Shown here in pieces: positions 74 through 61,871 of a stretch of DNA of 61,871 nt. A program made the position numbers and the translations under genes. The DNA is from Candidatus Saccharimonadales bacterium (GTDB lineage Bacteria; Patescibacteriota; Saccharimonadia; Saccharimonadales; EFPC-124). The stretch's first letter is position 1. Each line of letters opens with the position of its first letter. Where the stretch lies: positions 1-61,871 of the forward strand of contig DATEFB010000017.1 in assembly GCA_035280845.1 (NCBI GenBank), in the 5' to 3' direction. The notes beneath the pieces were generated by a model that was not told the origin of the DNA, searched no databases, and was given only the letters and a program-made list of their open reading frames with translations.

Positions 74-841
74 TCAGCCGACGCTGTACTCCTTGTACAG
101 CAGCAGGCTGAGCAGCGTCTTCAGGCACACTTTGCCACCACGCTTCGCGGCGGTGCGGGCTTGGCTGAGCGGCACCACGATGATCTGGACGCGCTCGTCC
201 TCATGGGCGGCTCCGCCGAACTTGTTGTGGAGCTTGCGGATCTGCGCGGATGTAACTCGGGCCCTGACCACGAAGAACTTCACGGTTTCGTCCGAACCAC
301 CCGGGCTCACCAGGAATGGCTCGTCCGAGCCGACGGCGTACTCGCCCAGGTCGATCGGCTCGCCCCAGACAATGATGCCGTCGCCGTCCGTCTCCTCGCC
401 ATCTGGCGCGGCGTTGGCCAACTCCTCGTCGAGTTCGCGCAGCCCGGCCAGCTTGACCTGCTCGCCAGGGTCGACCATCCCCGAGGGGTTGGAGACGACC
501 GCCGACTGTGCGCCAGGCACACGCGGCTGGATCACGAAGACCACGTGCTCTTCGCTACTGCCGTCATCGAGCAGCGCCAGCATGTCCACGGTGGCGCCGC
601 GCAGAGTGCAGACGCCGTCGAGACGACGTTCGCCCTCGTACGCTTCGACCAGCAGGTGGAGCATCTTGATCTCGGGCGTCGGGCGGCCCCAGGCGTGGAC
701 TGCAAGCACCGTCACGGCGCGCAGTTCGATGCTCGGGCCGTCAGTAGCCAGGCGTTCCAGCCACTGCCGGAACACGTGCGATTGCCGCACCTCTTCGGGT
801 GTCGCCTGTACGCCTTCGGCGCAGGTGATCTGTGGATTCAT
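74..841 (-). CDS. NUDIX hydrolase, ADP-ribose pyrophosphatase-like (high-GC island gene A)
   Basis: 255 aa. The Nudix box reads G-MVDPG-E-QVKLAGL-RELDEE (GX5EX7REUXEE). A downstream SPGGSDE..FFVV segment is typical of ADPRase-type Nudix proteins. Third codon positions are very GC-rich. The overlapping ORFs 93..887 and 161..892 are Arg/Ser/Pro-rich wrong-frame artefacts. Confidence 0.65.
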   Translation of the reverse strand: MNPQITCAEGVQATPEEVRQSHVFRQWLERLATDGPSIELRAVTVLAVHAWGRPTPEIKMLHLLVEAYEGERRLDGVCTLRGATVDMLALLDDGSSEEHVVFVIQPRVPGAQSAVVSNPSGMVDPGEQVKLAGLRELDEELANAAPDGEETDGDGIIVWGEPIDLGEYAVGSDEPFLVSPGGSDETVKFFVVRARVTSAQIRKLHNKFGGAAHEDERVQIIVVPLSQARTAAKRGGKVCLKTLLSLLLYKEYSVG

Positions 842-920
842 TGCTGCCTTCCGTTGTATCCGGATGGGACATTGTGCGAATCGATAATATAATGTTTTTT
901 ACCGTATTGGCAAATAATGA

Positions 921-1556
921 CTAGTCTTCGAGAACCTTTTTCAACTTTTCGGGGTGAATAAGAATATTTTGGCGGCCCAGAATCAGCAGGCCGTGCTTCT
1001 CGAACCTGTTTAAGATTTTGCCCGTCGTTTCGCGCGAAAGCCGTATGCTGCTTGCAAGTTCCTGGATCGTCAGCGGGCAATTTATAATAGTGTGGTCTTT
1101 GTTATATGTGCCAAACCGCTCCGCCAAAAACAGCAGTTTAAACGCGATACGCTGGTCTGCGGAATCAATGTTGAGGTTAATAAGGTCGCTGAAAACTGCA
1201 AATGTCTGGTGAAGGACCGCGCGCATAGTGCCCGGCTCGCGTTCGATATAGGCCTTGAACTCATCGAGTGGTTTTATGCGCACCGTCACTTCTGTAAACG
1301 CAAAGAATGCGACATCCATTTGGGTGTTATCGAAGATCCATTTGGCGGGGAACAGCTCATTCACGCCATAAATATGCTGGATACGCTCGTTGCCGTCTTT
1401 TGTGCTTGTGACGATTTTGACCGCCCCTTTGGTAATCCAGAATGCTTTGTCTGGCTGTTCGCCATAGTTAAGAATAAGTGCGCGTCGGGTATATACCCGC
1501 TCTCGCCCGTCAGCAAAAAAGGTGTTTAGTTTGGCAGTTGCTTCCTGGCTATCCAT
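921..1556 (-). CDS. Crp/Fnr family transcriptional regulator
   Basis: 211 aa with an N-terminal cNMP-binding-like beta-roll and a C-terminal HTH (TIQELASSIRLSRETTGKILNRFEKHGLL). Confidence 0.85.
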   Translation of the reverse strand: MDSQEATAKLNTFFADGRERVYTRRALILNYGEQPDKAFWITKGAVKIVTSTKDGNERIQHIYGVNELFPAKWIFDNTQMDVAFFAFTEVTVRIKPLDEFKAYIEREPGTMRAVLHQTFAVFSDLINLNIDSADQRIAFKLLFLAERFGTYNKDHTIINCPLTIQELASSIRLSRETTGKILNRFEKHGLLILGRQNILIHPEKLKKVLED

Positions 1557-6106: not shown

Positions 6107-8338
6107 GTGAGCATCCGAACAAAATTAACGCTTCTAATGCTCTTTATAGGCCTGTTGCCAACGGTGGTTGTGAGTGTGCTTGCCTACGCCACGATCAGTA
6201 ATGGGTTGACGCGTAAAACTGCCGAACAGCTCATTAGCTCATCGACCAAGCAGGAGCAAAAAATCAATGGCTTGCTGCAAAAACGGCAAGAGGACGCCGC
6301 GCAGCTTTCGAACCGCTTTGATTTGCAAACCGAGCTGGGACGATACATGACGTCTATGGGCAAGCAGGGGCAGGAGCGGCTATCGGCCATTCTGCTCGAT
6401 AAAAAAGTAGCGACGCCCGAGATCCAGACTATTCATTTGGCTGACCTTGAAGGCAAAGTTATAGCCACGACCCTCCGCGGCGCCGAGGGCTCGCAATTGA
6501 CTGGCGCTGATACGAATTTGCCCGCCGGCCAAGAAACATCAACCACGGTCCGCGAAGACCAGCGCGATGGTATTAACAAGCTTTTTATTACGACCCGCAT
6601 TAGCGTGAACAAAAACGAATCTGGCATCCTAAGCATTATTTTCCGGATGGATGACATTGTGGCAGCAGTGCAGGACTACACCGGCCTGGGCGCTACGGGT
6701 GAGACAGTTGTTGCTGCGCGCACTGCCGACGGCAATGCTATTTCGCTCTTCCCTCTGCGTTTTAAGACTGACGCCGCGCTGGAGTCTAACCTCAATTCAC
6801 TGCAATTGTTCAGCCAGTTTAATGATGGCTATAAAGACCTGGTTGACTACCGCGGGCACGATGTTATGGTTGCGGCCCGAGGCATTGGCTTTGCCAACTG
6901 GGTACTGGCAACCAAAATCGACAAAGACGAGGCTTTGGCCCAAATTGATCAGCTGCGTAACGCTTTGCTGGTGATTGTGGTCATATCGTCGGTCGCAATT
7001 ATAATGATCGCACTGTATTTTACGCGGTTCTTTACAAAGCCAATTCTGCACATCGCCGAAGTCGCCCAGCGGATTGGTAGGGGAGACTTCTCGCCGCGAG
7101 TGCTTTTAAAGCGAACCGACGAAATTGGCAAGCTGGCAGGCAGCATTAATACCATGGGTTCAAGTTTGAATGAGTTTGTGACCAGTATTGAGGCTCAACG
7201 CAACCGGCTTGAAGTGATTTTAAACAGCATCACCGAAAGTATTTTAGCCATAGACAAGCAAGGGGCAATTATTATTGCCAACCAGGCCGCCAGCCAGCTG
7301 ACACAACGCAAGCCCGAAGAAATCGTTGGGCAAAACATTGCGCACGTTTTTAGCTGGACACAAGACGGCCAGCCATTCGTCATTGATTATTTTAACCAGA
7401 CCGATGCCAAGGCCTATGACGGGCTGCAATACACCGACCAAACCGGCATGGTGCATCACGTAAAGTTGATTGTGGCAAAAGCGAGCCATCAGCAGGAGCA
7501 AAGCGCTGCACAGACCATTGTGACGATTCACGACGAGACCAAGAGCCGCGAGCTCGAAGCAATGAAGGTCGACTTTGTGTCTATGGCCGCTCATGAACTG
7601 CGCACGCCGCTCGCTGCAATCCGTGGTTATCTGGAACTCATTACATTTAAGGGCAATAAAAGCCTCTCGAGCGACACGGATTCCTATCTAAAGCAAGCGC
7701 TTAAAAGCACTACCGAACTTGGCGGGCTTATTAATAACCTGCTTGACGTCACGCGTATCGAGCGGGGCACACTGACATTTAACCTCGAAAAAGTAGATAT
7801 TGCCGCCGATGTAAAGCAGGCGGTCCAGGATGCCGGGTTCACAGCCCAAGATAAACATATAGCCATAACGTACGCCGGGCCAGCCGACAGTTGTTTTGTC
7901 ATTGCCGACCAAATTGCTCTGCACGAAGTGGTCAACAACCTCATTTCAAATGCCATTAAATATACCGATGCCAACGGTACGGTAGAGGTGTCGCTTGTGC
8001 CCGAAGGCACCATGTACCGGGTGAGCATAAAAGATACCGGCATGGGCATTCCAAAGCAAGCCCAGCCTAACTTGTTCACTAAGTTTTACCGCGTGCATGG
8101 TGGCCTGAACAGCGGCAGTACGGGCACGGGACTCGGCCTGTTTATCTCTAAGTCAATTGTTGAACGGCATAACGGCACGATTACGGTTAGTTCGCAAGAA
8201 GGTGTTGGCTCTGTGTTTAGCTTTACTATTCCAATGTTTAGTGAAGAGCAGTTCGCGGCCTTGCAGACCGAGCGGCAACCAAAGATAATAGCAACAAGGA
8301 GGCGACATGGCTGGATTACAAAAAATATTGCTCGTTGA
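6107..8338 (+). CDS. sensor histidine kinase (extracytoplasmic sensor-HAMP-PAS-HisKA-HATPase)
   Basis: 743 aa. Two TM segments flank a roughly 270-aa Cache-like loop. A HAMP and a PAS segment follow. H-box is MAAHELRTPL. N/G boxes are NLISNAIKYT and GTGLGLFISK. Confidence 0.9.
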   Translation: MSIRTKLTLLMLFIGLLPTVVVSVLAYATISNGLTRKTAEQLISSSTKQEQKINGLLQKRQEDAAQLSNRFDLQTELGRYMTSMGKQGQERLSAILLDKKVATPEIQTIHLADLEGKVIATTLRGAEGSQLTGADTNLPAGQETSTTVREDQRDGINKLFITTRISVNKNESGILSIIFRMDDIVAAVQDYTGLGATGETVVAARTADGNAISLFPLRFKTDAALESNLNSLQLFSQFNDGYKDLVDYRGHDVMVAARGIGFANWVLATKIDKDEALAQIDQLRNALLVIVVISSVAIIMIALYFTRFFTKPILHIAEVAQRIGRGDFSPRVLLKRTDEIGKLAGSINTMGSSLNEFVTSIEAQRNRLEVILNSITESILAIDKQGAIIIANQAASQLTQRKPEEIVGQNIAHVFSWTQDGQPFVIDYFNQTDAKAYDGLQYTDQTGMVHHVKLIVAKASHQQEQSAAQTIVTIHDETKSRELEAMKVDFVSMAAHELRTPLAAIRGYLELITFKGNKSLSSDTDSYLKQALKSTTELGGLINNLLDVTRIERGTLTFNLEKVDIAADVKQAVQDAGFTAQDKHIAITYAGPADSCFVIADQIALHEVVNNLISNAIKYTDANGTVEVSLVPEGTMYRVSIKDTGMGIPKQAQPNLFTKFYRVHGGLNSGSTGTGLGLFISKSIVERHNGTITVSSQEGVGSVFSFTIPMFSEEQFAALQTERQPKIIATRRRHGWITKNIAR

Positions 8339-13664: not shown

Positions 13665-16600
13665 ATGATCGTAATGGAAACGCAGCCGCCACAAGGCACC
13701 AAACCCAATCTAGAGCACCTAAGGATTGTTGAAGATGTGCTAGGCGTGCCCCTCTTGCCAGAGCAGATTATGGGCATACCTGTGGATGACGGCTCGATCA
13801 GGAGTTTTGCGTACGATTCGGTTGTGCGCGCGCTGGATGCACGGACTGGCAATAGGCCGGGGCGTGGCCTGGCAGAGGGCGCCGCGCACGACCTAAGAGA
13901 AGACGGGCGCTTTCGTCGGCTTGCTGCCGAAGTGCAGGCGGCCAACGATACGCTCGTGAATTGGCACATACCCCCGGCTATGCCTGTCGATGCCGATACG
14001 CTAGAGACTGCGCGTGGCCGTTTTCAGTCCCGGGCTATGCAGGCGGTGGTAGAGCATGCTCAGCGCTCGCCGTCTGCTGTCGGGCCAGATGATAGTCCGT
14101 ACCGCAATGGACTACTCACCATGGCGCCGCCCGGGGCTGGCAAAACCGTCCTGCAGGCGCTGGCCGTCAATTACGCTGGCGTCGGCTTACCAATAAGCGA
14201 ATCTGACCCCCGCCGAAGAACCGGTGTCGGCATTCTAAACAGCCGGCTGCTCATACGTCAGGGGCTCGACGAAGACGAGACGCTGCAGCGTTTCACGAAA
14301 GCCGGTGACCGCGACATGCGCATCGGCGCGTACTTTAATGATCGCCGTGACGGGCATGATGAATACGATTTGTTGCTAACCACCCCGCGCTCATACGAAA
14401 AAGCGGTCAAAAGTGGTGCCATCAATCCCGAAACCACAGTACGTTATTTGTTGGATGAAGCTCACCGGGTTGCACTCGCCCCTGGAATGCAGAAACATAT
14501 GACCGAGTTTGATTCGGGCTTGTATATGTTTACGGCCACACCGGCAATTGCGGGAGGGCGGCGTGATTTGCGCAGACAATTCCCGCATTCCCAATTCGGC
14601 TCGTTACGGGAGTTTGTGGAGGACGGCATTTTAAGCCCCGTCCAATTGTTTACGTACCGTGCAGGCCCAGAGGCAGAGTCGGCGGGACGGCTGGCGGTTG
14701 GCCTGGCCGCGGACTACGTAAAAAGCGGGCGCAAAACCTTGGTCGTGTGTCAGCCTGGTGAGCATATAAAGCAGGCGCGGGATATTGCCCGGCAGCTCAA
14801 TACAATGCATGAACGGGGCGCTATTACACCACATGAACGTTTCGGCTTCGACGGCAACGAGATAGCATGCGCCATCGGCACATACCCAGGCTCTACGCCC
14901 GCAGAAGACATTGCCCGGTTCCGCGCTGGCGAACGACTTATTGCCACGACTGTCGCGACTGGCAACGAGGGCATGAACATTGCCGATCTGGATGCATTAA
15001 TTATTATTGGCCCGCAAGGTGCAACATGGGTGGTTGAGCAGTGGCTTGGCCGGATTCTGCGCCCCAGCGGCCGTTTGGCGGTAGCCTCAGAAATTTTGCC
15101 GCACGACCTGCGCGAGGGCCGGCCGCTCGCCTCTATCTTTGGTCCCTTTGGCTTGCACGACGAGGTAATTACCGCCGGGTATTACATTGGGCCATCACTC
15201 ATAACCGACGAGCTGCCCGAGCCAGGGGCTGGCAATGTACGTCTTACGCCACCAGGTCGTGAAAGGGTGGTGCAAACACCGTCTGAGTTTTCTGAGATTT
15301 CTGGTCGCCCCCTCGACACATCGGAATTTTTAGAACATAGCGCCTCCTCGAGCACCGGCCTGGCATTTTCTGATGGGTATCGCCCGCCTGCCGAGCTCGA
15401 GCCTTCGCTTGTAGCCGGTATTTCTGTGCGTGAAGCAACGATTGCTCCAGCCGATATGCTCAAAGCACCGCCGCCTGAATACGCACCGCTAACAGGGATC
15501 GCGCCTGAAGGCGTAGAGCTTGAATGGTTATATGCAATGATGGACAAGCTCGATGACCCTGCAATCCGCTACATTGGCGTGTGGGAGCCAGATGCCATGG
15601 GTGAGATGCAGTATTTGCGGTATTATTCGCCAGCCGCGCACACGTATTTTGATACCCATCCAATACCCGAGCTTGTTGGCGAGCAGGAATTCTTGGACGA
15701 AGAAATTGCCCGCATGCTTAACGTCTCACGCAAATTTGTGCGGAGCGTGCTAGACGGCAATGGTATCAAACCTCTGAACCGTATTACCAAGTATCACCGC
15801 AACCCCAATTATTACGGCCTCGATACGTATGCGCTGGTCGCGGCTGAAGTGGCCAAGATTCCCTTTGCTGAAGAGTCAGATGTTGCTGTTACGGACCTTG
15901 GCCGCGATATAAGCATTGATTTTATCCGGGGGTACATAAACCGTGGCGAAATAGTCGCGACGTATAAACGCAGGCACCCCACGTGGGGTGTTGTTGGCAC
16001 TGCCCAGCATATTTCGAGCCAGGACGCAGACATGTTGGTGGCCGGTTATAAGTCGCTTGAAGTTGCTGATCTTTCTCAGTTTGTCGGGTTTACCGAGATC
16101 GCTCGGATTGCGGGCGTGGCTATTTCGTCGGTTCTAAATAAGTGGAACGCACTGCCGGAAGCAGAGCGCCCGCCAACGCGGTGGCTGCGTTCTGCGCCAA
16201 AAGTCCGTCCCGCCCAATTTGTTGACAGGGCGTGGGGCGAGGCGTTTGCAGAAGTGCTCAAGCCAGAGAAGGTTTTACCTTGGGAAGCGACGCTCAGCAT
16301 GATTGCGCTGTACTTTGGCAAGCAAAAGCTCAACATGGGCAACATCATTAAGCGTCGGGATACACCCGAACCTGTGAATATCCCCTTGCCAGGCGTGAGC
16401 GAAACAAAAGTGTATCCAATGTCGGTCATTCTTGACTTGCGGCGTGAAGGCATGCCGGCCGCGCCAGACGCACCGCCAATTATTGCGTCACTGGTAGCGC
16501 TTGCACCCGAGGATGTCGCGGATGCTGCCAAGGTAGCGGCGAGCCAGAATATCCAAAAGTATTACATTTCCAAAGAACAGCTAGCCCGGCCTGATGAGAT

Positions 16601-17099
16601 TGGCTATTATGCTGGACGCCGTACGTCCCCGCCACAGTTGCCTTTGCCGTTTGCCGAAAAGCCAAGCGAGCCGGAAGTTGCCGAATCGCTGCCCGAACCT
16701 GATCCATTCCACACACTTGCCAGCGTCCGGCAGCAGTTTGGATGCACGCCGCATGCCTTTACGATCCTCATGCAACGGGCCGAGCTACCTGAGGACGAAA
16801 TCGTAATGGACGGCAATACTGTGATTGGTATTCGCGAGGGCGGGTTTGCGGCGCTCGATAGGCTCGCGGCCCGTATCGCCATTGCCCCGTCCGGTTGGGC
16901 CAGCCTGCCGATGGTTGGGCACGCTGCGGCGCGAAGCACTAAAGATGCTGTCATGGCGGCCCTTGCGCGGATAGAGCACAGGCGTGGATATGCCGCCAGT
17001 GAGGAGGAAGTGCTGCTATGCCGCAATGATTCAGAGGTAGAGCTATACTTCTCAGTGCCCATGAAGCGCGCAATCAGGCACGAGGTGATAGATGGATAG
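13665..17099 (+). CDS. large SF2 (DEAH, ResIII-like) helicase with a roughly 650-aa C-terminal extension containing HTH-like repeats
   Basis: 1144 aa. Motif I APPGAGKT, motif II LLDEAHR, motif III FTATP, motif V TVATGNEGMNI, motif VI QWLGRILR. The C-terminal tail has several excisionase/MerR-like HTH-looking segments. G+C is visibly above backbone but below the islands. Confidence 0.8.
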   Translation: MIVMETQPPQGTKPNLEHLRIVEDVLGVPLLPEQIMGIPVDDGSIRSFAYDSVVRALDARTGNRPGRGLAEGAAHDLREDGRFRRLAAEVQAANDTLVNWHIPPAMPVDADTLETARGRFQSRAMQAVVEHAQRSPSAVGPDDSPYRNGLLTMAPPGAGKTVLQALAVNYAGVGLPISESDPRRRTGVGILNSRLLIRQGLDEDETLQRFTKAGDRDMRIGAYFNDRRDGHDEYDLLLTTPRSYEKAVKSGAINPETTVRYLLDEAHRVALAPGMQKHMTEFDSGLYMFTATPAIAGGRRDLRRQFPHSQFGSLREFVEDGILSPVQLFTYRAGPEAESAGRLAVGLAADYVKSGRKTLVVCQPGEHIKQARDIARQLNTMHERGAITPHERFGFDGNEIACAIGTYPGSTPAEDIARFRAGERLIATTVATGNEGMNIADLDALIIIGPQGATWVVEQWLGRILRPSGRLAVASEILPHDLREGRPLASIFGPFGLHDEVITAGYYIGPSLITDELPEPGAGNVRLTPPGRERVVQTPSEFSEISGRPLDTSEFLEHSASSSTGLAFSDGYRPPAELEPSLVAGISVREATIAPADMLKAPPPEYAPLTGIAPEGVELEWLYAMMDKLDDPAIRYIGVWEPDAMGEMQYLRYYSPAAHTYFDTHPIPELVGEQEFLDEEIARMLNVSRKFVRSVLDGNGIKPLNRITKYHRNPNYYGLDTYALVAAEVAKIPFAEESDVAVTDLGRDISIDFIRGYINRGEIVATYKRRHPTWGVVGTAQHISSQDADMLVAGYKSLEVADLSQFVGFTEIARIAGVAISSVLNKWNALPEAERPPTRWLRSAPKVRPAQFVDRAWGEAFAEVLKPEKVLPWEATLSMIALYFGKQKLNMGNIIKRRDTPEPVNIPLPGVSETKVYPMSVILDLRREGMPAAPDAPPIIASLVALAPEDVADAAKVAASQNIQKYYISKEQLARPDEIGYYAGRRTSPPQLPLPFAEKPSEPEVAESLPEPDPFHTLASVRQQFGCTPHAFTILMQRAELPEDEIVMDGNTVIGIREGGFAALDRLAARIAIAPSGWASLPMVGHAAARSTKDAVMAALARIEHRRGYAASEEEVLLCRNDSEVELYFSVPMKRAIRHEVIDG

Positions 17100-29468: not shown

Positions 29469-30101
29469 TCAGCGGGCGAACAGCGCCACGAAGCTGGCGG
29501 GCAGGAACTGCCGGCAGTGCGCCAGTACCCCTGCGTCGTCGATGTCGGCCGGCAGCAGCTCGCGGATCTTGGGGTGGTCGGCGACCTCCCAGAACGCGGC
29601 CACTGCGCTCGCCGGCGCCGACGTGATGCCTCGGAAGTGCGCCTCTACCTGCTCCTGGTCGAGCGAGAGCGGCTGGCGCACCACATTGGCATCGGCGTTG
29701 ATGTGTCGGCCGTGCGTCTGGCTGACGTGCAGCAGGATGCCTGCACGGGCGTGGGCGATCTCTGCCCCGTTCGTCAGAGCGTCGGCACGGGCGATGAAGA
29801 CCGTGCCCCACTGCCACACGCGGGCAACCAGCTCGGGGCTGACGCCCCAGCGCTGGTGTGCTTCGCGCAGACGCTCGGCGTACTGGCCGCCTCCGGGCTT
29901 GGTCAGTCCGGTGATGGTGGCCGTGGCAACGCGCAGGGCGTGGCCGGGCACCGACATGTGGCTTTCGCCCAGACCTGCGGCGACGATGCCGAAGACCTGG
30001 GCATCACCCACAACGCCCATGACGAGCGGTGGTGCCCATGCTCCCAGCGTGTCCGGGGCCAAACTGGCCACGAAGTCGCCGGGCATTTCCATTTGTGTCA
30101 T
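29469..30101 (-). CDS. hypothetical cytoplasmic protein (high-GC island gene B)
   Basis: 210 aa with ordinary amino-acid composition and GC-rich third positions. GGAGGG SD. The three other long ORFs over the same DNA are Arg/Pro/Ser-rich wrong-frame products. Confidence 0.6.
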   Translation of the reverse strand: MTQMEMPGDFVASLAPDTLGAWAPPLVMGVVGDAQVFGIVAAGLGESHMSVPGHALRVATATITGLTKPGGGQYAERLREAHQRWGVSPELVARVWQWGTVFIARADALTNGAEIAHARAGILLHVSQTHGRHINADANVVRQPLSLDQEQVEAHFRGITSAPASAVAAFWEVADHPKIRELLPADIDDAGVLAHCRQFLPASFVALFAR

Positions 30102-48574: not shown

Positions 48575-48925
48575 TCAGGACTTCGTCCTGAATCCCAGTA
48601 TCACCCCAGGCCCGATGGGTACGACGAGGCTCAGCGGCAAGGGGGTTGGCGCGTCTGGCTCAGTCTTGGGCACGAGCAGCAGGTGGACGCCGACCAGCCG
48701 CTCCAGCGGAGTGGGCGCGAGTGCGTCACGCTCCTCGTCTTCGATGGCGAAACCGACCCCGTCACTTTGGTCGCGCAGCCGGTCGTTGGGATCGACCAGC
48801 TCGGCGGTGTAGAGCGGGTGCTGGCTGACGCTTGAGTGTCGTGAGTCTTTGCCGACGATTTCGTAGACACGATCGCCAATAGTGACCCTGGCAAGATTCT
48901 CGACGTCGAGCTTCAAGGGAATCAA
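48575..48925 (-). CDS. hypothetical small protein (high-GC island gene D)
   Basis: 116 aa as tracked, but the tracked TTG start abuts the SD GAAGGAG. The TTG at 48916 (9-nt spacer) is more likely. TGGTATAGT extended -10 lies at 48956-48964 (minus). Confidence 0.5.
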   Translation of the reverse strand: MIPLKLDVENLARVTIGDRVYEIVGKDSRHSSVSQHPLYTAELVDPNDRLRDQSDGVGFAIEDEERDALAPTPLERLVGVHLLLVPKTEPDAPTPLPLSLVVPIGPGVILGFRTKS

Positions 48926-49029: not shown

Positions 49030-49434
49030 TTACATATCGGCAGTGATCAGCCGCTCCAGCGCCACGGCGCTCTGGTGGCGTCGCAGCACGTCTTCCGGGC
49101 TGTCGCCGTCGTTGCTGGGGTCGTCGTACCGCGCGGCGAACGTGATGCAGCGGCAGTGCTGGTCGGCGGCGCCGTCAATTCGCACGAGCATGTACTCGGC
49201 CTCGCTGCTGAACAGCACGCTGTCGCCGAAGACTTCGATCGCTTCCCAGTACCTGCTTCCGATCGCCATCATGCCTGCCGAAGCTTCCAGGCTCATGCGG
49301 CCGTTCATGTAGGCCACTGTGCCCAGAAGTACGGCTGCGGCGCAGCGCCGCAGGTCTCCGAGCGTGCCGGTGAAGCGGCATGATGTCTCTGACACGATCC
49401 GAAGGTACGGTTGGACTAACGGTTCCGGGGGCAT
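49030..49434 (-). CDS. hypothetical small cytoplasmic protein (high-GC island gene E)
   Basis: Start trimmed to MPPEPL (ATG at 49434, SD GAGGAG, 4-nt spacer). 134 aa. TGGTATAAT extended -10 lies at 49472-49480 (minus). Confidence 0.55.
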   Translation of the reverse strand: MPPEPLVQPYLRIVSETSCRFTGTLGDLRRCAAAVLLGTVAYMNGRMSLEASAGMMAIGSRYWEAIEVFGDSVLFSSEAEYMLVRIDGAADQHCRCITFAARYDDPSNDGDSPEDVLRRHQSAVALERLITADM

Positions 49435-49568
49435 TACACTCCTCACAACGCAGGTATGTAGCTAGTCCATAATTATACCAGCAAGCATATACGAGGCATT
49501 TGCACTGATTGGCAACCTTTACTACAATAGAAGGCAACAAAGCTAACGCTTAAGAAGTGGGGGTTACG

Positions 49569-56649: not shown

Positions 56650-57891
56650 ATGTCATTTTTACGCGATCTTCTGAATGCAAAGGAACCGCTCTTTAGCCAG
56701 GCCTTAAAGCAGCTAGAGCAAGCCAGCCACCAACCTGGCGCCGACGCCAAATTAATTGGCGATATCCACCAAAAAGCTACGACGGCTATGCGCGCCCTGG
56801 GTCTGGACGAAAAAGACACCACTGGTCCCGAGCTCTACCATGCACTGAACGCTAAAATCAAAGAGCACGACGAGCATTTGGCAAAAAGCATTGGTGGCAG
56901 TTACAACCAAACTGTCCAAGAGCTATTGCCACTTATGAAAGAGGCCGCCGAAAAAGTGAAAGTCCCGCGCGGTTGTTGGGTTCTTAAAAAAAGTGTCGCC
57001 AAAGATATGTTGCGTCAGATGCCGCCTCAGAACATCATGAAAATGCTGGGCTACCGTTCGATCGACAGTATGCTCAAGCGCGAGAACCTGGCCGAGATTT
57101 ATGGGGCACTGCGTTTTGCCGAAGACCCAGCATGGTTGAACAGCTTTAACGAAAAGTACAAAACACTTCAGCCTAGCGATTTTGAAACGCGCAAAATCGA
57201 AATTGTCATTATGCCGCGCGACCGGTGGGGTGATATTGCCGAGCACTTTATCGAGAAGAAGCGCCATAACATTACGCACTTAAAAGAGCTGGGTGTCATT
57301 TTAATGCTGCCCGTGAAGGCCGATACGCTGCCTGGTATTACCGTGTGGGTGATGTCGCTATTATTCCATTACACGAACGAAATCCGTCTGTACAGCGCCT
57401 ATTTTAAGCTGCAACAAGTCAAAAAGGATTTTGGTGAGATTTTAAGCCACACGCTCATTGCCGATCCCGACTTAGGGCCGGTCATGGCTGGCCAGAACAT
57501 CCACTGGCGTGTTATTCAGCGCTATTTTGGTAAGCTCGAGACAGAAGTCCACCCAGAGATTTTTGAGCCGCACGTCCAGCCCGAAGACCTGCACTGGCGC
57601 CGCGCCGAAGAAGTGCTCTACGACATTGACCCTGAGCTTGAATTCTGGCGTGACCTCGATTATGTCGGGCTTATGTTCGAGGACCGTCCGCTGCCATTTA
57701 ACATGATGGACGTTGCCGCCAGCTATTGTAACAACACGCCCTACGAAAAGCGCACTATTTACCATTTCCGAGAGAGTCTGTGGAACGAGGTCTTTATGCG
57801 CTACATGGGGCAAAAAACGCTCCAGGACCAGGTTCTTAAACAGCTCGACAACGAGATGATTGCCCCCGAGAGACTCGGTAAGGTAAAGTAA
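56650..57891 (+). CDS. conserved-looking hypothetical protein
   Basis: 413 aa, soluble, no family recognised. Ends 4 nt before the next gene. Confidence 0.5.
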   Translation: MSFLRDLLNAKEPLFSQALKQLEQASHQPGADAKLIGDIHQKATTAMRALGLDEKDTTGPELYHALNAKIKEHDEHLAKSIGGSYNQTVQELLPLMKEAAEKVKVPRGCWVLKKSVAKDMLRQMPPQNIMKMLGYRSIDSMLKRENLAEIYGALRFAEDPAWLNSFNEKYKTLQPSDFETRKIEIVIMPRDRWGDIAEHFIEKKRHNITHLKELGVILMLPVKADTLPGITVWVMSLLFHYTNEIRLYSAYFKLQQVKKDFGEILSHTLIADPDLGPVMAGQNIHWRVIQRYFGKLETEVHPEIFEPHVQPEDLHWRRAEEVLYDIDPELEFWRDLDYVGLMFEDRPLPFNMMDVAASYCNNTPYEKRTIYHFRESLWNEVFMRYMGQKTLQDQVLKQLDNEMIAPERLGKVK

Positions 57892-57895
57892 AAGC

Positions 57896-58498
57896 ATGAG
57901 CAAGTACCAAATCTGTGTGTCCGGAGCCGCTGCCGGTGAAACTGTTGAAACCTCGCACTTGCTGGCGTATGCCTTGGGCGCTGCAATCGCAAAAGCTGGC
58001 CATACACTCACTACTGGCGCTACCGTTGGATTGCCACAGTATGCAGCCCGGGGCGCGAAAGACAACGGCGGTTTGTCGATCGGATTCTCGCCCGCCAGCA
58101 CCATACGCGAGCACGTTAAGTCCTACCGACTGCCCGTAAAAGAATTTGATTACATTAACTTTACGAACATGGATTACGTAGGGCGTGACGTCTATTTGGT
58201 TCGCTCCAGCGATGCCGTTATAACCGTTGGTGGCCGTATGGGCAGCTTGCACGAATTCGTTACAGCGATTGAAGGCCATGAATTCTGCGCCGTGCTACTA
58301 GGTAGCGGTGGTCTGGCTGACTTTATTCCGACAATTGTCGATCGTTTGCCGGTTCCGGCTGGCACTAAGATTATTTACGATACCGACCCGGAGCGCCTGG
58401 TGAAGCAAGTCATTGAGGTACTCGACGAAAAATACGCCGATATTAAAGATGCGATTGAAAGTCTCGAGAAGCGCCCCAAAAAGACTGGGCGCGGCTAA
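57896..58498 (+). CDS. TIGR00725/LOG-like (SLOG superfamily) Rossmann-fold protein
   Basis: ICVSGAA..GHTLTTGATVG..VITVGGRMGSLHEF matches the LOG/TIGR00725 pattern. Confidence 0.75.
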   Translation: MSKYQICVSGAAAGETVETSHLLAYALGAAIAKAGHTLTTGATVGLPQYAARGAKDNGGLSIGFSPASTIREHVKSYRLPVKEFDYINFTNMDYVGRDVYLVRSSDAVITVGGRMGSLHEFVTAIEGHEFCAVLLGSGGLADFIPTIVDRLPVPAGTKIIYDTDPERLVKQVIEVLDEKYADIKDAIESLEKRPKKTGRG

Positions 58499-58526
58499 AA
58501 AAACACCAGCGGTTGCTGGTGTTTTT
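58497..58526. terminator. bidirectional intrinsic terminator (backbone type)
   Basis: AAAAAAACACCAGC-GGTT-GCTGGTGTTTTT. Confidence 0.8.
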
Positions 58527-58542
58527 GATTGCGGGTAGGGGT

Positions 58543-58571
58543 GGCGGGGGCCCGAGTATAAGACCCCCGCC
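58543..58571 (-). terminator. GC-rich stem-loop 3' of island gene F
   Basis: GGCGGGGG-13 nt-CCCCCGCC, 22 nt beyond the stop at 58594-58596. Confidence 0.5.
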
Positions 58572-58593
58572 TGCGCCGTAGCGCGGTTGTGCG

Positions 58594-59157
58594 TCAGCCC
58601 TGGGCGGTTGCCGGGGTGTTCAGGTTATGCTCCTCCATCAGCTTGATGAAGGTCGGGTAGTCGAGCAGCTCCTCGGCAGCGAAGGCCTCGGGGAGCGTGT
58701 CATGCACCACCCCTTCCGGGTTGGTGTAGGACGTGACGACGAAGCCGTTCTTGGCCTCCACCAGTGTGGCCGCGCCGCTCTCGTCGCCGATGTGCACGAC
58801 GATCTCGACCGTCAGCTTGTCGTCCTCGGTGATGTCGAGCACGGTGTCATCTGTGAACGGCCATTCGGCCACGCGCAGGTTCTCGATGAACTCCGCCTCT
58901 TCACGGACTTCGCCGATGGTGCGCGGTTCGTCCAGCTCCGCGCTCAGTGCCTTCGGGCCGTCAATACTGGGGAAGCCGGGAACGATGCCGCTGAGCAGCT
59001 TGGTGAGCTGTGCCACGGCGGCCTGTGGGTCGTCCGTGTCGAGGCTGAGCCGCCGAACGACGGTGGTGCGCCTCAGCTTGCGAAGCAGGGCGACAGCCGA
59101 CGTTGTTGCGCCGCCTACCACGACTGCGGCAAGCAGGAGCTTGGTGCCTTTTCGCAT
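58594..59157 (-). CDS. membrane-anchored hypothetical protein (high-GC array gene F)
   Basis: Start trimmed to MRKGTKLLLAAVVVGG (SD GAGGAAA, 5-nt spacer). 187 aa with an N-terminal TM and an acidic ectodomain. TGGTATATA lies at 59210-59218 (minus). Confidence 0.55.
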   Translation of the reverse strand: MRKGTKLLLAAVVVGGATTSAVALLRKLRRTTVVRRLSLDTDDPQAAVAQLTKLLSGIVPGFPSIDGPKALSAELDEPRTIGEVREEAEFIENLRVAEWPFTDDTVLDITEDDKLTVEIVVHIGDESGAATLVEAKNGFVVTSYTNPEGVVHDTLPEAFAAEELLDYPTFIKLMEEHNLNTPATAQG

Positions 59158-59230
59158 CTGTTTCCTCGATCCATCGGTGGGTGATGCTGCGCACATGACG
59201 CCCATACTTTATATACCAGTATTGCCAATA

Positions 59231-59258
59231 AAACAAATCACCAGCCGAATGACTGGTG
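59231..59258 (-). terminator. intrinsic terminator 3' of array gene G
   Basis: On the minus strand: CACCAG-8 nt-CTGGTG followed by ATTTGTTTTATT. Confidence 0.5.
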
Positions 59259-59335
59259 GCAGTGATTGGATTGGACGGCCGGAGCCCTCGTAATGAGGAC
59301 CCCGACCTAGCGCCCGGTCGTGAAGTGCTGCGTCG

Positions 59336-59707
59336 TCAGCCGGCGACGGCGGGCGTGCGCAGCAGGGTGGAGACGGTGTTCTGACTGGTGATCCGCTGCT
59401 GGGCGGACTCGGGGAGCGGCCTGCGGGTGCCGTCGGCCTCGACGAGGCTCTGGGAGACCCAGCCCTCGCGACCGAAGACGGCTCCCACGTAGCGGTCACC
59501 GTCGCCGGGGATGTCGGCCCCGAGCGCCGGCTTGCGGCCCACGCGGGCCAGGCGGAACTGGGCGCCGTCCGGCTGGATGCCGGCCGCGGCCAGGCTCTTG
59601 CGGGCGTCGTCCATGTGCCCGTCGAGCCGACGCTTGCCGGCACGGACCGCGACGGCACCGACTCCGGCGCCGACGGCGATTCCGAGGAACAGAAGTTTCC
59701 GATTCAC
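59336..59707 (-). CDS. membrane-anchored small protein (high-GC array gene G)
   Basis: 123 aa with a GTG start, SD GGAG (6-nt spacer) and an N-terminal TM (LLFLGIAVGAGVGAVAV). The juxtamembrane motif RKSLAAAGIQPDG resembles RRDLVAAGFTDD in H. TGATATAAT lies at 59773-59781 (minus). Confidence 0.5.
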   Translation of the reverse strand: MNRKLLFLGIAVGAGVGAVAVRAGKRRLDGHMDDARKSLAAAGIQPDGAQFRLARVGRKPALGADIPGDGDRYVGAVFGREGWVSQSLVEADGTRRPLPESAQQRITSQNTVSTLLRTPAVAG

Positions 59708-59819
59708 GTGTTACTCCAGTTTCGTGCGTGCGCAGATGCGCTTTGAACGGTTTGGAAAAGGCGCTGGCGGCCATTATATCAAAGTTTTGTCAAAATCATG
59801 AAATCGCTACAAATGGAGA

Positions 59820-59843
59820 GGCGGGCCCACGATGGGGCCCGCC
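59820..59843 (-). terminator. GC-rich stem-loop 3' of array gene H (GGCGGGCCC type)
   Basis: GGCGGGCCC-6 nt-GGGCCCGCC, with conserved flanks shared with the elements at 60493 and 61179. Confidence 0.6.
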
Positions 59844-59870
59844 GTTGTGCTGTCTCCGAGCTGACTGTGG

Positions 59871-60377
59871 TCAGCCTGTCTGTTCGGGTGCGAAGCAGGG
59901 GAACGACGACCGGTACTGTGCCAGGTAGTCGTACACCTGGGCGCGGGTCGGGTGCGACCGGCCGAAGGGCTGGCGGTCGCGGCCCGGCTGGGTGGCGTCG
60001 ATGCCGTCGGGGTCGTCCCCGATTTGCACCTCGTCGAACTTGTAGAACTTGACCACCTCCACGCCGCCGCTGAACACGGGCTCAGCCAAGGCGGTGGTGC
60101 CGTCGCGCTCCAGTTCGATGGGGCAGTTGCCCACCCTGGTGGTGGCGTCGATCTCCTCGCTGTCGCCCTGTTCGGTCTTCCAGCCCACCTGAAGCGTTGC
60201 GTCGTCGGTGAAGCCGGCGGCCACGAGGTCGCGACGGAACTCGTCCACAGCTTCGGCGCGGTCCCGCTCCTGGCCGGCGTTGTAGGCGCGTACTCCGGCG
60301 ATGATGCCGAACGTAGCGCCTGCCGCCAACCCCAGAACGAGCAGGGTGATCAGTGCGCGTTTGACGGGTTTGGGCAT
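59871..60377 (-). CDS. membrane-anchored two-Cys ectodomain protein, paralog 1 (array gene H)
   Basis: Start trimmed to MPKPVKRALITLLVLGL (SD GGGAG). 168 aa. Clear paralogy to gene I (FRRDLVAAGF, GNCPIELER, YKFDEV, QVYDYLA, PCF). Confidence 0.65.
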   Translation of the reverse strand: MPKPVKRALITLLVLGLAAGATFGIIAGVRAYNAGQERDRAEAVDEFRRDLVAAGFTDDATLQVGWKTEQGDSEEIDATTRVGNCPIELERDGTTALAEPVFSGGVEVVKFYKFDEVQIGDDPDGIDATQPGRDRQPFGRSHPTRAQVYDYLAQYRSSFPCFAPEQTG

Positions 60378-60455
60378 TGCAAACTCCCGAGTGAGTGTGT
60401 GGTGTGAGCAGCACACAAATTATACAACTTTATTTATAAAAGTAAAATGGCTAAC

Positions 60456-60512
60456 AAAAAAACGCCCTAAGGCGCGTCATTTCGGGGGAGGTGCGGGCCC
60501 TTGCGGGCCCGC
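60456..60512 (-). terminator. tandem terminators 3' of array gene I (GCGGGCCC stem-loop plus short hairpin with T7 run)
   Basis: GCGGGCCC-TTGC-GGGCCCGC at 60493-60512. On the minus strand this is followed by CGCC-TTAG-GGCG-TTTTTTT (60456-60474). Confidence 0.6.
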
Positions 60513-60557
60513 GGTGGTGCTGTCCTCCGATGTGCGGGGTGGCGCTGGTGACTTCGG

Positions 60558-61082
60558 TCAGTTCTTCGCGGCGTTGGCGGCGAAGCACCGGGTGAAGTTG
60601 TTGGCGGCGAGGTAGTCGTAGACCTGCTCGCGGGACGGGTTCGGCGTCGTGAACTTGGCGCGGTTGCCCTCGCCGTCCTCCACGTCGACACCGTCGTCGT
60701 CGGAGCCGTCGTTGACCTCGTCGAACTTGTAGGCGCGGACGCCCGGCTTCCCGTTCACGACGGGGGCGCGGTCGTAGGCCGCGTCCTCGGTGCGCTCCAG
60801 CTCCAGGCGGCAGCCGCCCACGGTGGCGACGGCGTCCAGCTCGGACTCGGTCTTGGACGTCTTGCACGTACCGTTCTTGTTCTTCTTGGTGCAGGTCGTC
60901 TCGTCCTTCCACTCGGCGTCGGCGTTGAAGCCGGCGTCGCGGAGGTCGCGCTCGAACTGCGCCTCGGCGGCGTTGCGGCCGCGGAAGTGGTCGTAGATGG
61001 CGTAGCCGATGCCGCCCACGCAGAGCAGGGCGACGACGACGACCACGACCACGACCAGGACGGGGGAACGACGCTGGGACAT
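60558..61082 (-). CDS. membrane-anchored Cys-containing ectodomain protein, paralog 2 (array gene I)
   Basis: 174 aa with SD GAGGAG (6-nt spacer) and a poly-Val TM. Motifs are FERDLRDAGF, GGCRLELER, YKFDEV, QVYDYLA and RCF. Overlapping ORFs 60451..61140 and 60755..61144 are Arg/Pro-rich artefacts. Confidence 0.65.
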   Translation of the reverse strand: MSQRRSPVLVVVVVVVVALLCVGGIGYAIYDHFRGRNAAEAQFERDLRDAGFNADAEWKDETTCTKKNKNGTCKTSKTESELDAVATVGGCRLELERTEDAAYDRAPVVNGKPGVRAYKFDEVNDGSDDDGVDVEDGEGNRAKFTTPNPSREQVYDYLAANNFTRCFAANAAKN

Positions 61083-61178
61083 GATGCACTCCTCGAGTGA
61101 TCGGAATGGGTACAGCGTGCATATAATACAATGTTAACAAACAAAATGCAATAGTTTTATGTCATCAAAAATGGAAGA

Positions 61179-61196
61179 GCGGGCCCGAAGGCCCGC
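61179..61196 (-). terminator. GC-rich stem-loop 3' of array gene J (GCGGGCC type)
   Basis: GCGGGCC-CGAA-GGCCCGC, 22 nt beyond the stop. On the minus strand it is followed by TCTTCCATTTTTGAT. Confidence 0.6.
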
Positions 61197-61218
61197 AGTG
61201 TTATCTCCCGTCTGTTGG

Positions 61219-61701
61219 TTACGGCTTGCATGGAGAGCCGTTTTTCTTGAGGTGCGCCTGTACCTCGGCGGGTGATGGATTGGCGGTGTTGAGGGCATAT
61301 TTCACCATCTTGCCACCTTGTTTCACCTCATCGAGCTTGTACTTCACCGCTGTGCCCGAAGGCATGGCTGGCGCAACTTGCTGCGCCGGCGAGAGCACAC
61401 CGACGATCCACTTTATGCCGACGGTGCATGACCCTACCTCACCGGTCGCTTCGACCTTGAACTTGCCACCTTCGACGGCCGTTGTTGCCTGGAAACCCTC
61501 GTAGCCGCGTGCCTTGAGTGCATTCAGCAGGGCGCCCTTGTATGCCTCGCCTCCGGCAGCAGGTGCTTCGGTAGGCGCGCTAGAAGGGGGCGGGACAGAG
61601 GTGGCGCAATACGCCAGCGCGAACGACAAAAGGCCGAGCGCCAGGAAGGCCAACAGCCCCGTTCCCAACAGGCTCAAAAGATGTCTGAGCTGCTTCTTCA
61701 T
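61219..61701 (-). CDS. membrane-anchored two-Cys ectodomain protein, paralog 3, lower G+C (array gene J)
   Basis: Start trimmed to MKKQLRHLL (SD GAAGGG, 6-nt spacer). 160 aa with a TM and a Pro/Ser/Ala linker. The motifs GSCTVGIKW, VKYKLDEV, PSPAEVQAHL and SPCK align with H and I. Confidence 0.6.
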   Translation of the reverse strand: MKKQLRHLLSLLGTGLLAFLALGLLSFALAYCATSVPPPSSAPTEAPAAGGEAYKGALLNALKARGYEGFQATTAVEGGKFKVEATGEVGSCTVGIKWIVGVLSPAQQVAPAMPSGTAVKYKLDEVKQGGKMVKYALNTANPSPAEVQAHLKKNGSPCKP

Positions 61702-61737
61702 GTGCAACCCTTCTTTGTGCCAGGGATAACGCTAGCT

Positions 61738-61765
61738 ATTCTAAATAAACCCTACCACCTGTCAA
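61738..61765 (-). promoter_or_regulatory. sigma-70-type promoter of gene J
   Basis: Minus strand reads TTGACA-16 nt-TAGAAT, about 37 nt upstream of the ATG at 61701. Confidence 0.55.
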
Positions 61766-61774
61766 GGTGCGGAA

Positions 61775-61783
61775 TGGTACAAT
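61775..61783 (+). promoter_or_regulatory. extended -10 box (TGGTACAAT), leaderless-type promoter of uvrB
   Basis: The box ends 7 nt before the ATG at 61791. Confidence 0.55.
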
Positions 61784-61790
61784 AATAGGG

Positions 61791-61871
61791 ATGTCTCAAG
61801 AATTTAAACTCGTTACCAAATACCAGCCGACCGGCGACCAACCTTCGGCGATTGCCCAGCTTGTTGAAGGG
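61791..61871 (+). CDS. uvrB: excinuclease ABC subunit B, 5' end only (runs off the window)
   Basis: Translation MSQEFKLVTKYQPTGDQPSAIAQLVEG matches the conserved UvrB N-terminus (F.L.S.Y.P.GDQP.AI..L..G). Not in the ORF track because it is truncated. Confidence 0.85.
   Translation, partial: MSQEFKLVTKYQPTGDQPSAIAQLVEG

Follow-up and report, generated by a model that had tools for sequence, protein, structure and literature searches.

A candidate hypervariable surface-protein array with persistently high GC3 between LOG and uvrB in a Saccharibacterium genome

Between a SLOG/LOG-like gene and uvrB, contig DATEFB010000017.1 of a Candidatus Saccharimonadales bacterium (assembly GCA_035280845.1, positions 1 to 61,871; this whole stretch of 61,871 nucleotides is called the window below) carries an array of five minus-strand open reading frames (ORFs), designated F, G, H, I, and J. 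Their GC content is 0.60-0.74, compared with a window average of ~0.52, and the contrast lies mainly at third codon positions, where the GC content (GC3) of the native genes (~55 in the window) is 0.49-0.67. What do these genes encode, and does their composition betray an origin elsewhere? Our reading, to which we assign a probability of roughly 0.5, is that a Saccharibacterium epibiont carries here a hypervariable locus of cassettes, which encode fast-diverging surface proteins with maintained GC3. Two properties would make such a hypervariable surface-protein island distinctive: we found no PDB or BFVD match for its confidently predicted fold, and the GC3, persistent and specific to each gene, reaches 0.97 where the genome has 0.52 GC. 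The genes of the array, with lengths in amino acids (aa), and the two genes that flank it are as follows:

J, 61219..61701, minus strand: 160 aa, GC3 0.70; a membrane helix, a Pro/Ser/Ala linker, and an ectodomain with two conserved Cys; distant paralogue of H and I.
I, 60558..61082, minus strand: 174 aa, GC3 0.97; member of the H/I/J family.
H, 59871..60377, minus strand: 168 aa, GC3 0.87; paralogue of I.
G, 59336..59707, minus strand: 123 aa with a GTG start, GC3 0.90; second family, with one helix and a DARxxLxxxG motif.
F, 58594..59157, minus strand: 187 aa, GC3 0.84; third family, found only in this lineage.
Left flank, 57896..58498, plus strand: SLOG cluster-4/LOG-like gene (Pfam PF18306, E 1e-28) of native composition, GC3 0.56.
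Right flank, 61791..61871, plus strand: start of uvrB, with its ATG at 61791; the gene continues beyond the window end.

All five ORFs were found where the first-pass annotation of this DNA had placed them and at the sizes it had given. The length of 187 aa for F runs from an ATG that bears a Shine-Dalgarno sequence, in agreement with independent gene calls; an upstream in-frame ATG that would extend the protein to 203 aa falls within the promoter. The array was independently assembled in ENA ERZ27257114, ENA ERZ27257108, and JGI 3300078620; it is identical in the two ENA data sets and is not an assembly artefact. Third-position periodicity is strong, with GC content at second positions (GC2) of 0.42-0.55 against GC3 of 0.84-0.97 in F to I, and of 0.49 against 0.70 in J. 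It is true that high-GC DNA yields long ORFs on both strands and that the nonsynonymous-to-synonymous rate ratio (dN/dS) of H/I-like genes is near 1, as would be expected if the array were a chimeric high-GC assembly or a set of chance ORFs in GC-rich spacer DNA. However, the periodicity and syntenic orthologues in four genomes speak against such a nonfunctional origin, and it is effectively refuted by junctions that are identical in at least three independent assemblies, by the conserved Cys and Asp residues together with a confident predicted fold, and by an F C-terminal domain that is nearly invariant beside a variable N-terminus.

To which organism does the locus belong, and how does it vary? 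The UvrB protein, complete (655 aa) on the overlapping contig L002, is 69-75% identical to its counterparts in metagenome-assembled genomes of Candidatus Saccharibacteria and at most 63% identical to those in the rest of GTDB, and the gene content of the window (split transketolase, PfkB, FBA, GatCAB) fits a small genome of the candidate phyla radiation (CPR). Judged from these data, the host genome is that of a Saccharibacterium (Patescibacteria/CPR). The closest reference genomes retain the gene order FBA-PfkB-413aa-LOG-uvrB. In the nearest of them (L005), LOG abuts uvrB with no gene between, where the window has 3.2 kb and five genes, and because LOG and uvrB adjoin there, the array is an insertion into conserved synteny. 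Closer relatives have flanks that are very similar to those of the window (UvrB 91-93% identical, LOG 97% for the L088 orthologue, and the 413-aa protein 90%), and their slots are differently filled. The slot of L088 reads uvrB, P0008 (H/I-like), a 118-aa G-like gene, and LOG; that of L089 reads uvrB, a 156-aa J orthologue, and P0007 (I-like), at which the contig ends; and that of L003 reads uvrB, P0006, and a partial G-like gene. In addition, two or more strain variants, which differ in content, are present in JGI sample 3300078620, and in one of its contigs a 41-aa gene fragment on the opposite strand appears to lead straight to H-G-F-LOG, with J and I skipped.

The proteins diverge as fast as the slot changes its content. 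Where the housekeeping proteins of two genomes are 90-97% identical, identity is 38-55% for their H/I-like proteins and 26% for their G-like proteins, and the proportion of nonsynonymous differences (pN) is 0.33-0.46 for H/I-like pairs and 0.55 for the G-like pair, compared with 0.05-0.06 for uvrB and 0.017 for LOG. For J, dN/dS against the L089 orthologue is ~0.33, although the dN/dS values of array genes are unreliable given that their synonymous sites are saturated. Since conserved flanks, strain-variable copy number, and fast protein divergence coincide here, the uvrB-LOG slot is a typical hypervariable locus. A diversifying family had been proposed in the first-pass annotation, and the comparison across related strains that it recommended bears the proposal out for H, I, and J, the H/I-like proteins being only 38-55% identical between genomes with a UvrB identity of 91-93%. 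On its other side, too, uvrB borders a slot of variable content: L002, which belongs to the window's own strain, has a 198-aa gene there (6664-7260, plus strand; GC3 0.77), and L089 has a 174-aa gene (920-1444, plus strand; GC3 0.85).

Is the high GC3 a trace of import? The main evolutionary rival is that the genes were recently acquired by horizontal transfer, either from a host of high GC (Actinomycetota) or from a phage of that host, with donor codon usage not yet ameliorated; a foreign origin is what the first-pass annotation had put forward. The cultivated members of the Saccharibacteria grow with Actinobacteria as hosts and possess natural competence (PMC10633639). Moreover, GC3 stands at 0.84-0.97 against 0.49-0.67 in native genes, the 3' untranslated regions (UTRs) and hairpins are GC-rich, the insertion breaks conserved synteny, and G, H, and two isolated GC-rich islands elsewhere in the window (described below) combine raised GC at first codon positions (GC1) with a low lysine share K/(K+R). 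Nevertheless, no donor emerged from any collection searched. There was none among 1.84 billion representative proteins (exhaustive profile search) or 5.8 billion clusters (word index), and family-pattern scans of 185,579 GTDB species genomes, IMG/VR, and JGI metagenome contigs returned no relatives. When F, G, H, I, and J were concatenated with both islands as a query, the phage collection gave no match and the plasmid collection only a distant NUDIX match of island 1.

An island from a high-GC donor is expected to have atypical composition, closest relatives in the donor lineage with only patchy occurrence in the recipient clade, and GC3 that decays towards the host genome. The composition is indeed atypical (GC3 0.70-0.97 against 0.49-0.67), but the closest relatives lie in moderate-GC contigs, and four-fold degenerate sites are nearly saturated and still G or C. 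All 11 members of the H/I/J family whose DNA was read are on contigs of 0.49-0.58 GC (0.49-0.55 outside the short, cassette-dominated L003), with GC3 of 0.70-0.97 against 0.45-0.69 in neighbour genes; four of them occupy the uvrB slot, four are members of what we call subfamily B and follow a GtrA gene, and one stands beside phosphoketolase. GC3 is also gene-specific, being 0.70 in both J and its L089 orthologue and 0.89-0.97 in I, P0007, P0006, and P0008. At four-fold sites, 42-60% of positions differ between family members, against 45-58% expected at full randomisation (conserved codon boxes), so that these sites are 80-100% saturated, with changes mostly between C and G; the corresponding figures for uvrB are 56% observed and 71-72% expected. 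The synonymous sites of the family have thus turned over while remaining G or C.

Amino-acid usage and the flanking elements add to this picture. In H/I-like members K/(K+R) is 0.43-0.64 (H 0.28) and GC1 is 0.56-0.65 (H 0.69), whereas the genuine high-GC3 ORFs of the fetched loci (n = 8) have 0.22 +/- 0.09 and 0.69 +/- 0.03, respectively; apart from H, the H/I-like members therefore have a native-looking usage. Homology between genomes extends to the AT-rich promoters and to the 3' elements, so that whole cassettes share a common ancestor and foreign ORFs did not land behind native promoters. Likewise, the slot, the order uvrB-J-I-like, and the GC3 levels recur in genomes with saturated synonymous sites. 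Amelioration should lower GC3 first, yet GC3 is extreme in I, P0006, P0007, and P0008 while their amino acids look native. Collectively, these observations run counter to the proposed foreign origin, and recent transfer is already disfavoured; we consider it unlikely. High GC3, we conclude, is instead a maintained property of the cassettes, not the scar of a recent import.

Subfamily B always lies directly downstream of a GtrA-family gene (L085 9518-10447, L004 1816-2763, L091 1950-2972, and L092 5016-6019), and the GC3 of these GtrA-family genes, 0.69-0.76, is itself above that of their neighbours. This adjacency hints at a link to cell-envelope glycan or lipid modification.

What kind of protein, then, does the array encode? 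H and I are 38% identical (BLASTP, E 1e-16), with DNA-level repeats of 71-84% identity, and J, joined to them through a profile, aligns with both over the whole ectodomain; H, I, and J are accordingly paralogues. They share a layout of a short basic N-terminus, one hydrophobic helix, the juxtamembrane motif (D/E)FxxDLxxxGF, the motif VGxCxxELER ... Yx(F/L)DE, and a C-terminal Cys. Cys91, Asp121, and Cys166 (I numbering) are invariant in 19 sequences, and an additional pair of Cys is present in most of the I-like members. A search of the 1.84 billion representative proteins with the family profile gave 18 hits, two of which, P0010 (an RHS protein) and P0019 (a tandem-repeat artefact), were dropped as spurious, leaving ~16 clusters, so the family is very rare. 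Among its members are strain variants of I (P0002, 84% identical, and P0003, 83%) and orthologues of J (P0005, P0021, and the 156-aa gene of L089, whose GC3 is also 0.70).

As the first-pass annotation had anticipated, none of the five proteins could be assigned to a described family: F to J have no significant family in Pfam, NCBIfam, PHROGs, or PADLOC, and a profile search of PDB sequences gave no match (best E 0.44). Protein I has weak matches (E 0.003-0.08) to Pfam DUF6167 and to the NCBIfam Rv0361 and Rv1733c families, but membership was rejected, as the scores fall far below the cut-offs (15.0 against 27, 17.0 against 37, and 12.8 against 80 bits) and cover the helix region only. Like I, these actinobacterial single-pass families have a basic stretch at the N-terminus, a single helix, and a juxtamembrane segment that is charged; they share no ectodomain similarity with it. 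The structure modelling that the first-pass annotation had recommended was carried out for I. AlphaFold2, given the 19-sequence alignment, returned a confident model (predicted local distance difference test [pLDDT] 91.9, predicted template modelling score [pTM] 0.80) in which a helix at residues 7-49, which would serve as anchor and stalk, is accompanied by a long beta-hairpin, additional strands, and another helix at the C-terminus. Foldseek found no counterpart of this model in PDB (best E 0.46, TM below 0.25) or in BFVD (best E 0.057). The H/I/J family thus appears to be undescribed, with a confidently predicted fold that is unmatched in either collection.

The charge distribution (positive-inside rule) and the conserved even number of Cys favour an orientation of H, I, and J with the N-terminus inside and the C-terminus outside, and their ectodomain is probably disulfide-bonded. 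For all five proteins, the first-pass annotation had predicted such a topology, with an exposed C-terminal domain, from the basic segment and helix; this is plausible for H, I, and J and uncertain for F and G. We also looked for a lipobox, [LVI][ASTVI][GAS]C, with which the signal peptide should end and which should be conserved across orthologues. There is no candidate in F, G, or H, and the helix Cys of I (LLCV) has Leu at -1 and is out of context. J was considered as a lipoprotein and rejected, its LAYC being noncanonical (Tyr at -1) and the Cys being absent from the L089 J orthologue and from P0021.

G and F belong to families of their own. A juxtamembrane motif had been noted as common to G, H, I, and, weakly, J; what the last three share is in fact the entire ectodomain, and for G the resemblance is confined to this motif of 15 residues. 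With an hhalign probability of 7%, homology of G to H, I, and J was rejected as unproven. Relatives of G occur only beside H-like genes (L088 10651-11007, 118 aa; L003 1098-1316, partial), and in every case with sequence available downstream, a G-like gene comes next after the H-like one. F has relatives only in P0023 (87%) and P0024 (80%). Its N-terminal 75 residues (helix and linker) vary while the C-terminal domain, residues 77-187, is almost invariant, which points to purifying selection.

How are these genes transcribed? The first-pass annotation had described each of them as a single-gene unit with its own Shine-Dalgarno sequence, promoter, and terminator. The Shine-Dalgarno sequences (GAAGGG, GAGGAG, GGGAG, TGGAG, and GAGGA) are all present, 5-6 nucleotides before the start codons, and the spacers of the array are AT-rich (0.42-0.47 GC). 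A consensus scan recovered 4 promoter-like sites against 0.5 expected, two of which are those of J and H on the gene strand, and 10 terminator-like sites against 3.1 expected; the promoters of I, G, and F were identified by eye and not by the scan. A GC-rich hairpin, mostly with a T-run, stands 3' of every array gene. The signals, listed gene by gene, are as follows:

J promoter-like site, 61738..61765, minus strand: TTGACA-16-TAGAAT, matching at 11 of 12 positions, in the 89-bp divergent spacer shared with uvrB.
J terminator, 61166..61196, minus strand: GCGGGCCTTCGGGCCCGC and then a T-rich tail, from the consensus scan.
I promoter-like site, 61123..61151, minus strand: TTGCAT-17-TATTAT, followed by the conserved GCTGT motif of the 5' UTR; identified by eye.
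I 3' element, 60455..60528, minus strand: GGAGGACAGCACCAC-GCGGGCCC-loop-GGGCCCGC-CCTCC, followed by another hairpin that has a T7 run.
H promoter-like site, 60419..60446, minus strand: TTTACT-16-TATAAT, matching at 10 of 12 positions.
H 3' element and terminator, 59812..59857, minus strand: GGAGACAGCACAAC-GGCGGGCCC-loop-GGGCCCGCC-TCTCC-ATTT, the same element as after P0006, P0007, and P0008.
G promoter-like site, 59773..59802, minus strand: extended -10, TGaTATAAT; identified by eye.
G terminator-like hairpin, 59239..59258, minus strand: CACCAG..CTGGTG and then a T-rich tail, from the consensus scan.
F promoter-like site, 59210..59237, minus strand: extended -10 type, TGgTATATA; identified by eye, position approximate.
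Hairpins after F, 58499..58571, minus strand: GGCGGGGG...CCCCCGCC, then a perfect 12-bp palindrome between A/T runs.

Parts of these signals are conserved between genomes. The arrangement upstream of J is the same in its L089 orthologue; the promoter and 5'-UTR motif TTGTAT(A/T)AT...GCTGT is common to I, H, P0006, P0007, and P0008; and the 3' element GGAGRACAGCACCAC-GCGGGCCC-loop-GGGCCCGC-(T/C)CTCC follows the same five genes. The rest of the 62-kb window has no copy of the GCGGGCCC hairpin, and within the array the conserved hairpin type is common only to H, I, and J, the hairpins of G and F being unrelated to it. The 12-bp palindrome after F could also terminate the convergent LOG-like gene. 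Rfam gave nothing above threshold in the array. With a promoter-like site before each ORF and a stem-loop with T-run after it, the description of five single-gene units holds at the level of sequence patterns, and each array gene is probably its own transcription unit and not part of an operon.

Tandem single-gene units raise the possibility of a mobile-element or prophage remnant, that is, integron-like or phage-derived cassettes encoding, for example, superinfection-exclusion membrane proteins. The array resembles integron cassettes in its tandem units and in the conserved imperfect GC-rich palindrome with which H, I, and J end, and its strain-variable content and atypical composition would also suit such an origin. 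In contrast to the promoterless ORFs of integrons, each followed by an attC repeat, every ORF here has its own -10/-35-like site and Shine-Dalgarno sequence, and the palindrome followed by a T-run behaves as an intrinsic terminator. The array is bordered by LOG-like/413-aa/PfkB at one end and by uvrB/GatCAB at the opposite end, and the annotated genes of the neighbouring contigs include no IntI integrase, recombinase domain, or phage gene. We recognised no attI site and saw no direct repeats flanking the five genes, and PHROGs, the phage collection, and IMG/VR gave no match. We therefore regard a mobile-element origin as very unlikely. Features of a diversity-generating retroelement were also sought. 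Within 58400-61871 there is no repeat of the template/variable (TR/VR) type, the only long repeats being those of the H/I paralogy, and no reverse transcriptase was found among the genes on the neighbouring contigs, to which this negative is confined.

The UTRs of the cassettes have a further shared property. H/I-like cassettes have the segment GTGCTGT at -33 to -38 of the 5' UTR, and its complement, ACAGCAC, stands immediately upstream of the terminator (I, 61112-61121 with 60516-60522; H, 60408-60414 with 59846-59852). Equivalent relative positions are complementary in L003, L085, L088, L089, L004, L091, and L092, and in subfamily B different sequences, TCTCACC(CT) and (AG)GGTGAGA, stand at the same relative positions. 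The duplex between a cassette's own UTRs beats shuffled sequences (p <= 0.085 each) in 8 of the 12 family cassettes and in none of the 4 non-family GC-rich cassettes. The scores are 2/200 for I, 0/200 for P0020, and 4/200 for P0015; taken singly, every case is weak. This suggests that the mRNA may pair end to end, perhaps for stability or translational control. Whole-mRNA folding was rejected as evidence, as it gave no separation (z -1.4 for I, -3.3 for H, and -1.8 for the native LOG control), and minimum-free-energy folds of whole transcripts were left unused, the native control likewise forming a closing 5'-3' helix.

What could such proteins be for? Actinobacterial hosts secrete Esx effectors against Saccharibacteria (PMC13622651), and because hosts attack in this way, selection at the interface is plausible. 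The most likely role of H, I, and J is that of cell-surface proteins under diversifying selection at the host or phage interface. The main functional rival holds that the array is an orphan immunity or protective array, whose membrane-anchored extracytoplasmic proteins would neutralise envelope-targeting toxins of hosts or competitors, such as Esx-type effectors. In Bacteroidales, the orphan immunity arrays known as acquired interbacterial defence (AID) and recombinase-associated AID (rAID) systems consist of small, fast-evolving genes with promoter-bearing spacers (bioRxiv 10.1101/471110; PMC12247911). The array described here is like them in its small fast-evolving genes with their own promoter-bearing spacers, conserved flanks, and strain-variable copy number, and a role in antagonistic cell-cell interaction is plausible for both; an ectodomain anchored at the membrane surface and the secretion of anti-epibiont effectors by hosts (PMC13622651) would also suit protection. 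On the other hand, the array has no recombinase, toxin remnants, or similarity to known immunity families, as searches of Pfam, NCBIfam, PADLOC, and PDB were null and the neighbouring contigs hold no toxin gene, recombinase, or known immunity family. Its proteins are anchored in the membrane, their predicted fold is new and has no match to any immunity protein, the GC3 of their genes is extreme and persistent, and they belong to a CPR epibiont; moreover, subfamily B is single-copy after GtrA and not arrayed. By analogy with the Bacteroidales systems, an immunity function is conceivable, but we hold it to be doubtful.

Given that the GC3 seems to be maintained, a force is needed to maintain it, and GC-biased gene conversion (gBGC), selection for GC-rich, structured, long-lived mRNA, and a localised mutational process are the candidates. 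Conversion of this kind has reportedly been observed in bacteria. GC-rich surface families that gene conversion has shaped, the mycobacterial PE/PPE-PGRS genes for example, are comparable in being paralogous, surface-associated, fast-diverging, and above the genome average in GC, with recombination as a candidate driver in both. In contrast, the array proteins have no PE/PPE domains or repeats, and the GC excess here is almost purely synonymous, and at about +0.3-0.4 GC3 far larger than the gBGC effects known in bacteria. In the literature that we searched, GC3-rich cassettes of Saccharibacteria are not described. A more radical version, which we rate as rather improbable, is that a locus-specific, GC-driving diversification (either intense gBGC among exchanged cassettes or transcript-delimited AT-to-GC mutagenesis) both holds GC3 at ~0.9-0.97 and drives protein divergence; the promoter, the 5'/3' UTR pairing, and the hairpin would then define the unit acted on. 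If true, this would give CPR epibionts a hitherto undescribed means of varying the proteins on their surface.

Returning to the hypervariable surface-protein locus that we favour, we propose that the array was set into the otherwise conserved FBA-PfkB-413aa-LOG-uvrB synteny and that each cassette, comprising a promoter, a Shine-Dalgarno sequence, an ORF, and a strong hairpin terminator, is transcribed alone. H, I, and J would be single-pass proteins with the N-terminus inside, whose long helix serves as anchor and stalk and presents a small, beta-rich, disulfide-stabilised ectodomain on the epibiont surface. G may be a partner that accompanies the H-like protein, and F a later addition in this lineage. 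The set of cassettes would change by duplication, loss, or replacement of whole units, with the surface proteins diversifying under pressure from host or phages at the epibiont interface, and GC3 would be maintained by gBGC at a locus with frequent cassette exchange, by selection for stable GC-rich mRNA, or by both.

Several observations weigh against this proposal. The dN/dS of H/I-like pairs, 0.55-1.09 from the same saturated synonymous sites, fits relaxed constraint as well as diversifying selection. H, G, and both GC-rich islands have GC1 of 0.69-0.77 and low K/(K+R), resembling a high-GC origin, and the noncoding 3' UTRs have a GC content of 0.50-0.79, compared with 0.47 in native intergenic DNA; owing to these GC-rich 3' UTRs, a regional or foreign cause fits better than pure codon selection. 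Published effects of gBGC on bacterial GC3 are said to be far smaller than the excess of 0.3-0.4 seen here. The taxonomy of the subfamily-B contigs (L085, L004, and L090-L092) is based on moderate GC and gene content only. F and G have more K/R after the helix than before it, so that an exposed C-terminal domain is not established for them and their topology may be the reverse of that of H, I, and J. Finally, the AlphaFold2 model of F, made from three close sequences, has a pLDDT of 35; it was unusable and was not searched.

GC3-rich genes also occur outside the array and make up ~9 of the roughly 65 genes of the window. Two are isolated single-gene cassettes, the islands mentioned above: 74-841 (minus strand) encodes a 255-aa, weakly NUDIX-like protein (GC3 0.83), and 29469-30101 (minus strand) a 210-aa protein without a family (GC3 0.83). 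An AT-rich promoter-like site and a Shine-Dalgarno sequence are present in both, as is a strong hairpin rich in GC, and with GC1 of 0.72-0.74 and K/(K+R) of 0.13-0.36 they have a genuinely high-GC look, unlike I. A GC-rich patch (0.58-0.64 GC) holds the ORFs 48575-48925 and 49030-49446, both on the minus strand, with GC3 of 0.76 and 0.81, respectively. The moderate-GC contig L085 has other GC3-rich genes as well, at 763-1197 (144 aa, GC3 0.85) and 1748-2413 (a 221-aa TPR-like protein, GC3 0.89), and on account of these the GC3-rich class extends beyond this genome and beyond membrane proteins. Two further window proteins have no Pfam match, a 1144-aa protein (13665-17099, plus strand) and the 413-aa protein between PfkB and LOG (56650-57891, plus strand), the latter being 58-90% identical across related Saccharibacteria.

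Saccharibacteria and other Patescibacteria live attached to host bacteria, and to our knowledge it is largely unknown what determines their host range or how they survive host counter-attack. The array offers a concrete candidate for the epibiont-host interface, being hypervariable, predicted to be membrane-anchored, and found so far only in this group. Composition alone would normally lead its genes to be labelled as horizontally acquired from a high-GC host. If maintained GC3 proves to be common in CPR genomes, composition-based calls of horizontal gene transfer in these genomes would need to be re-examined.

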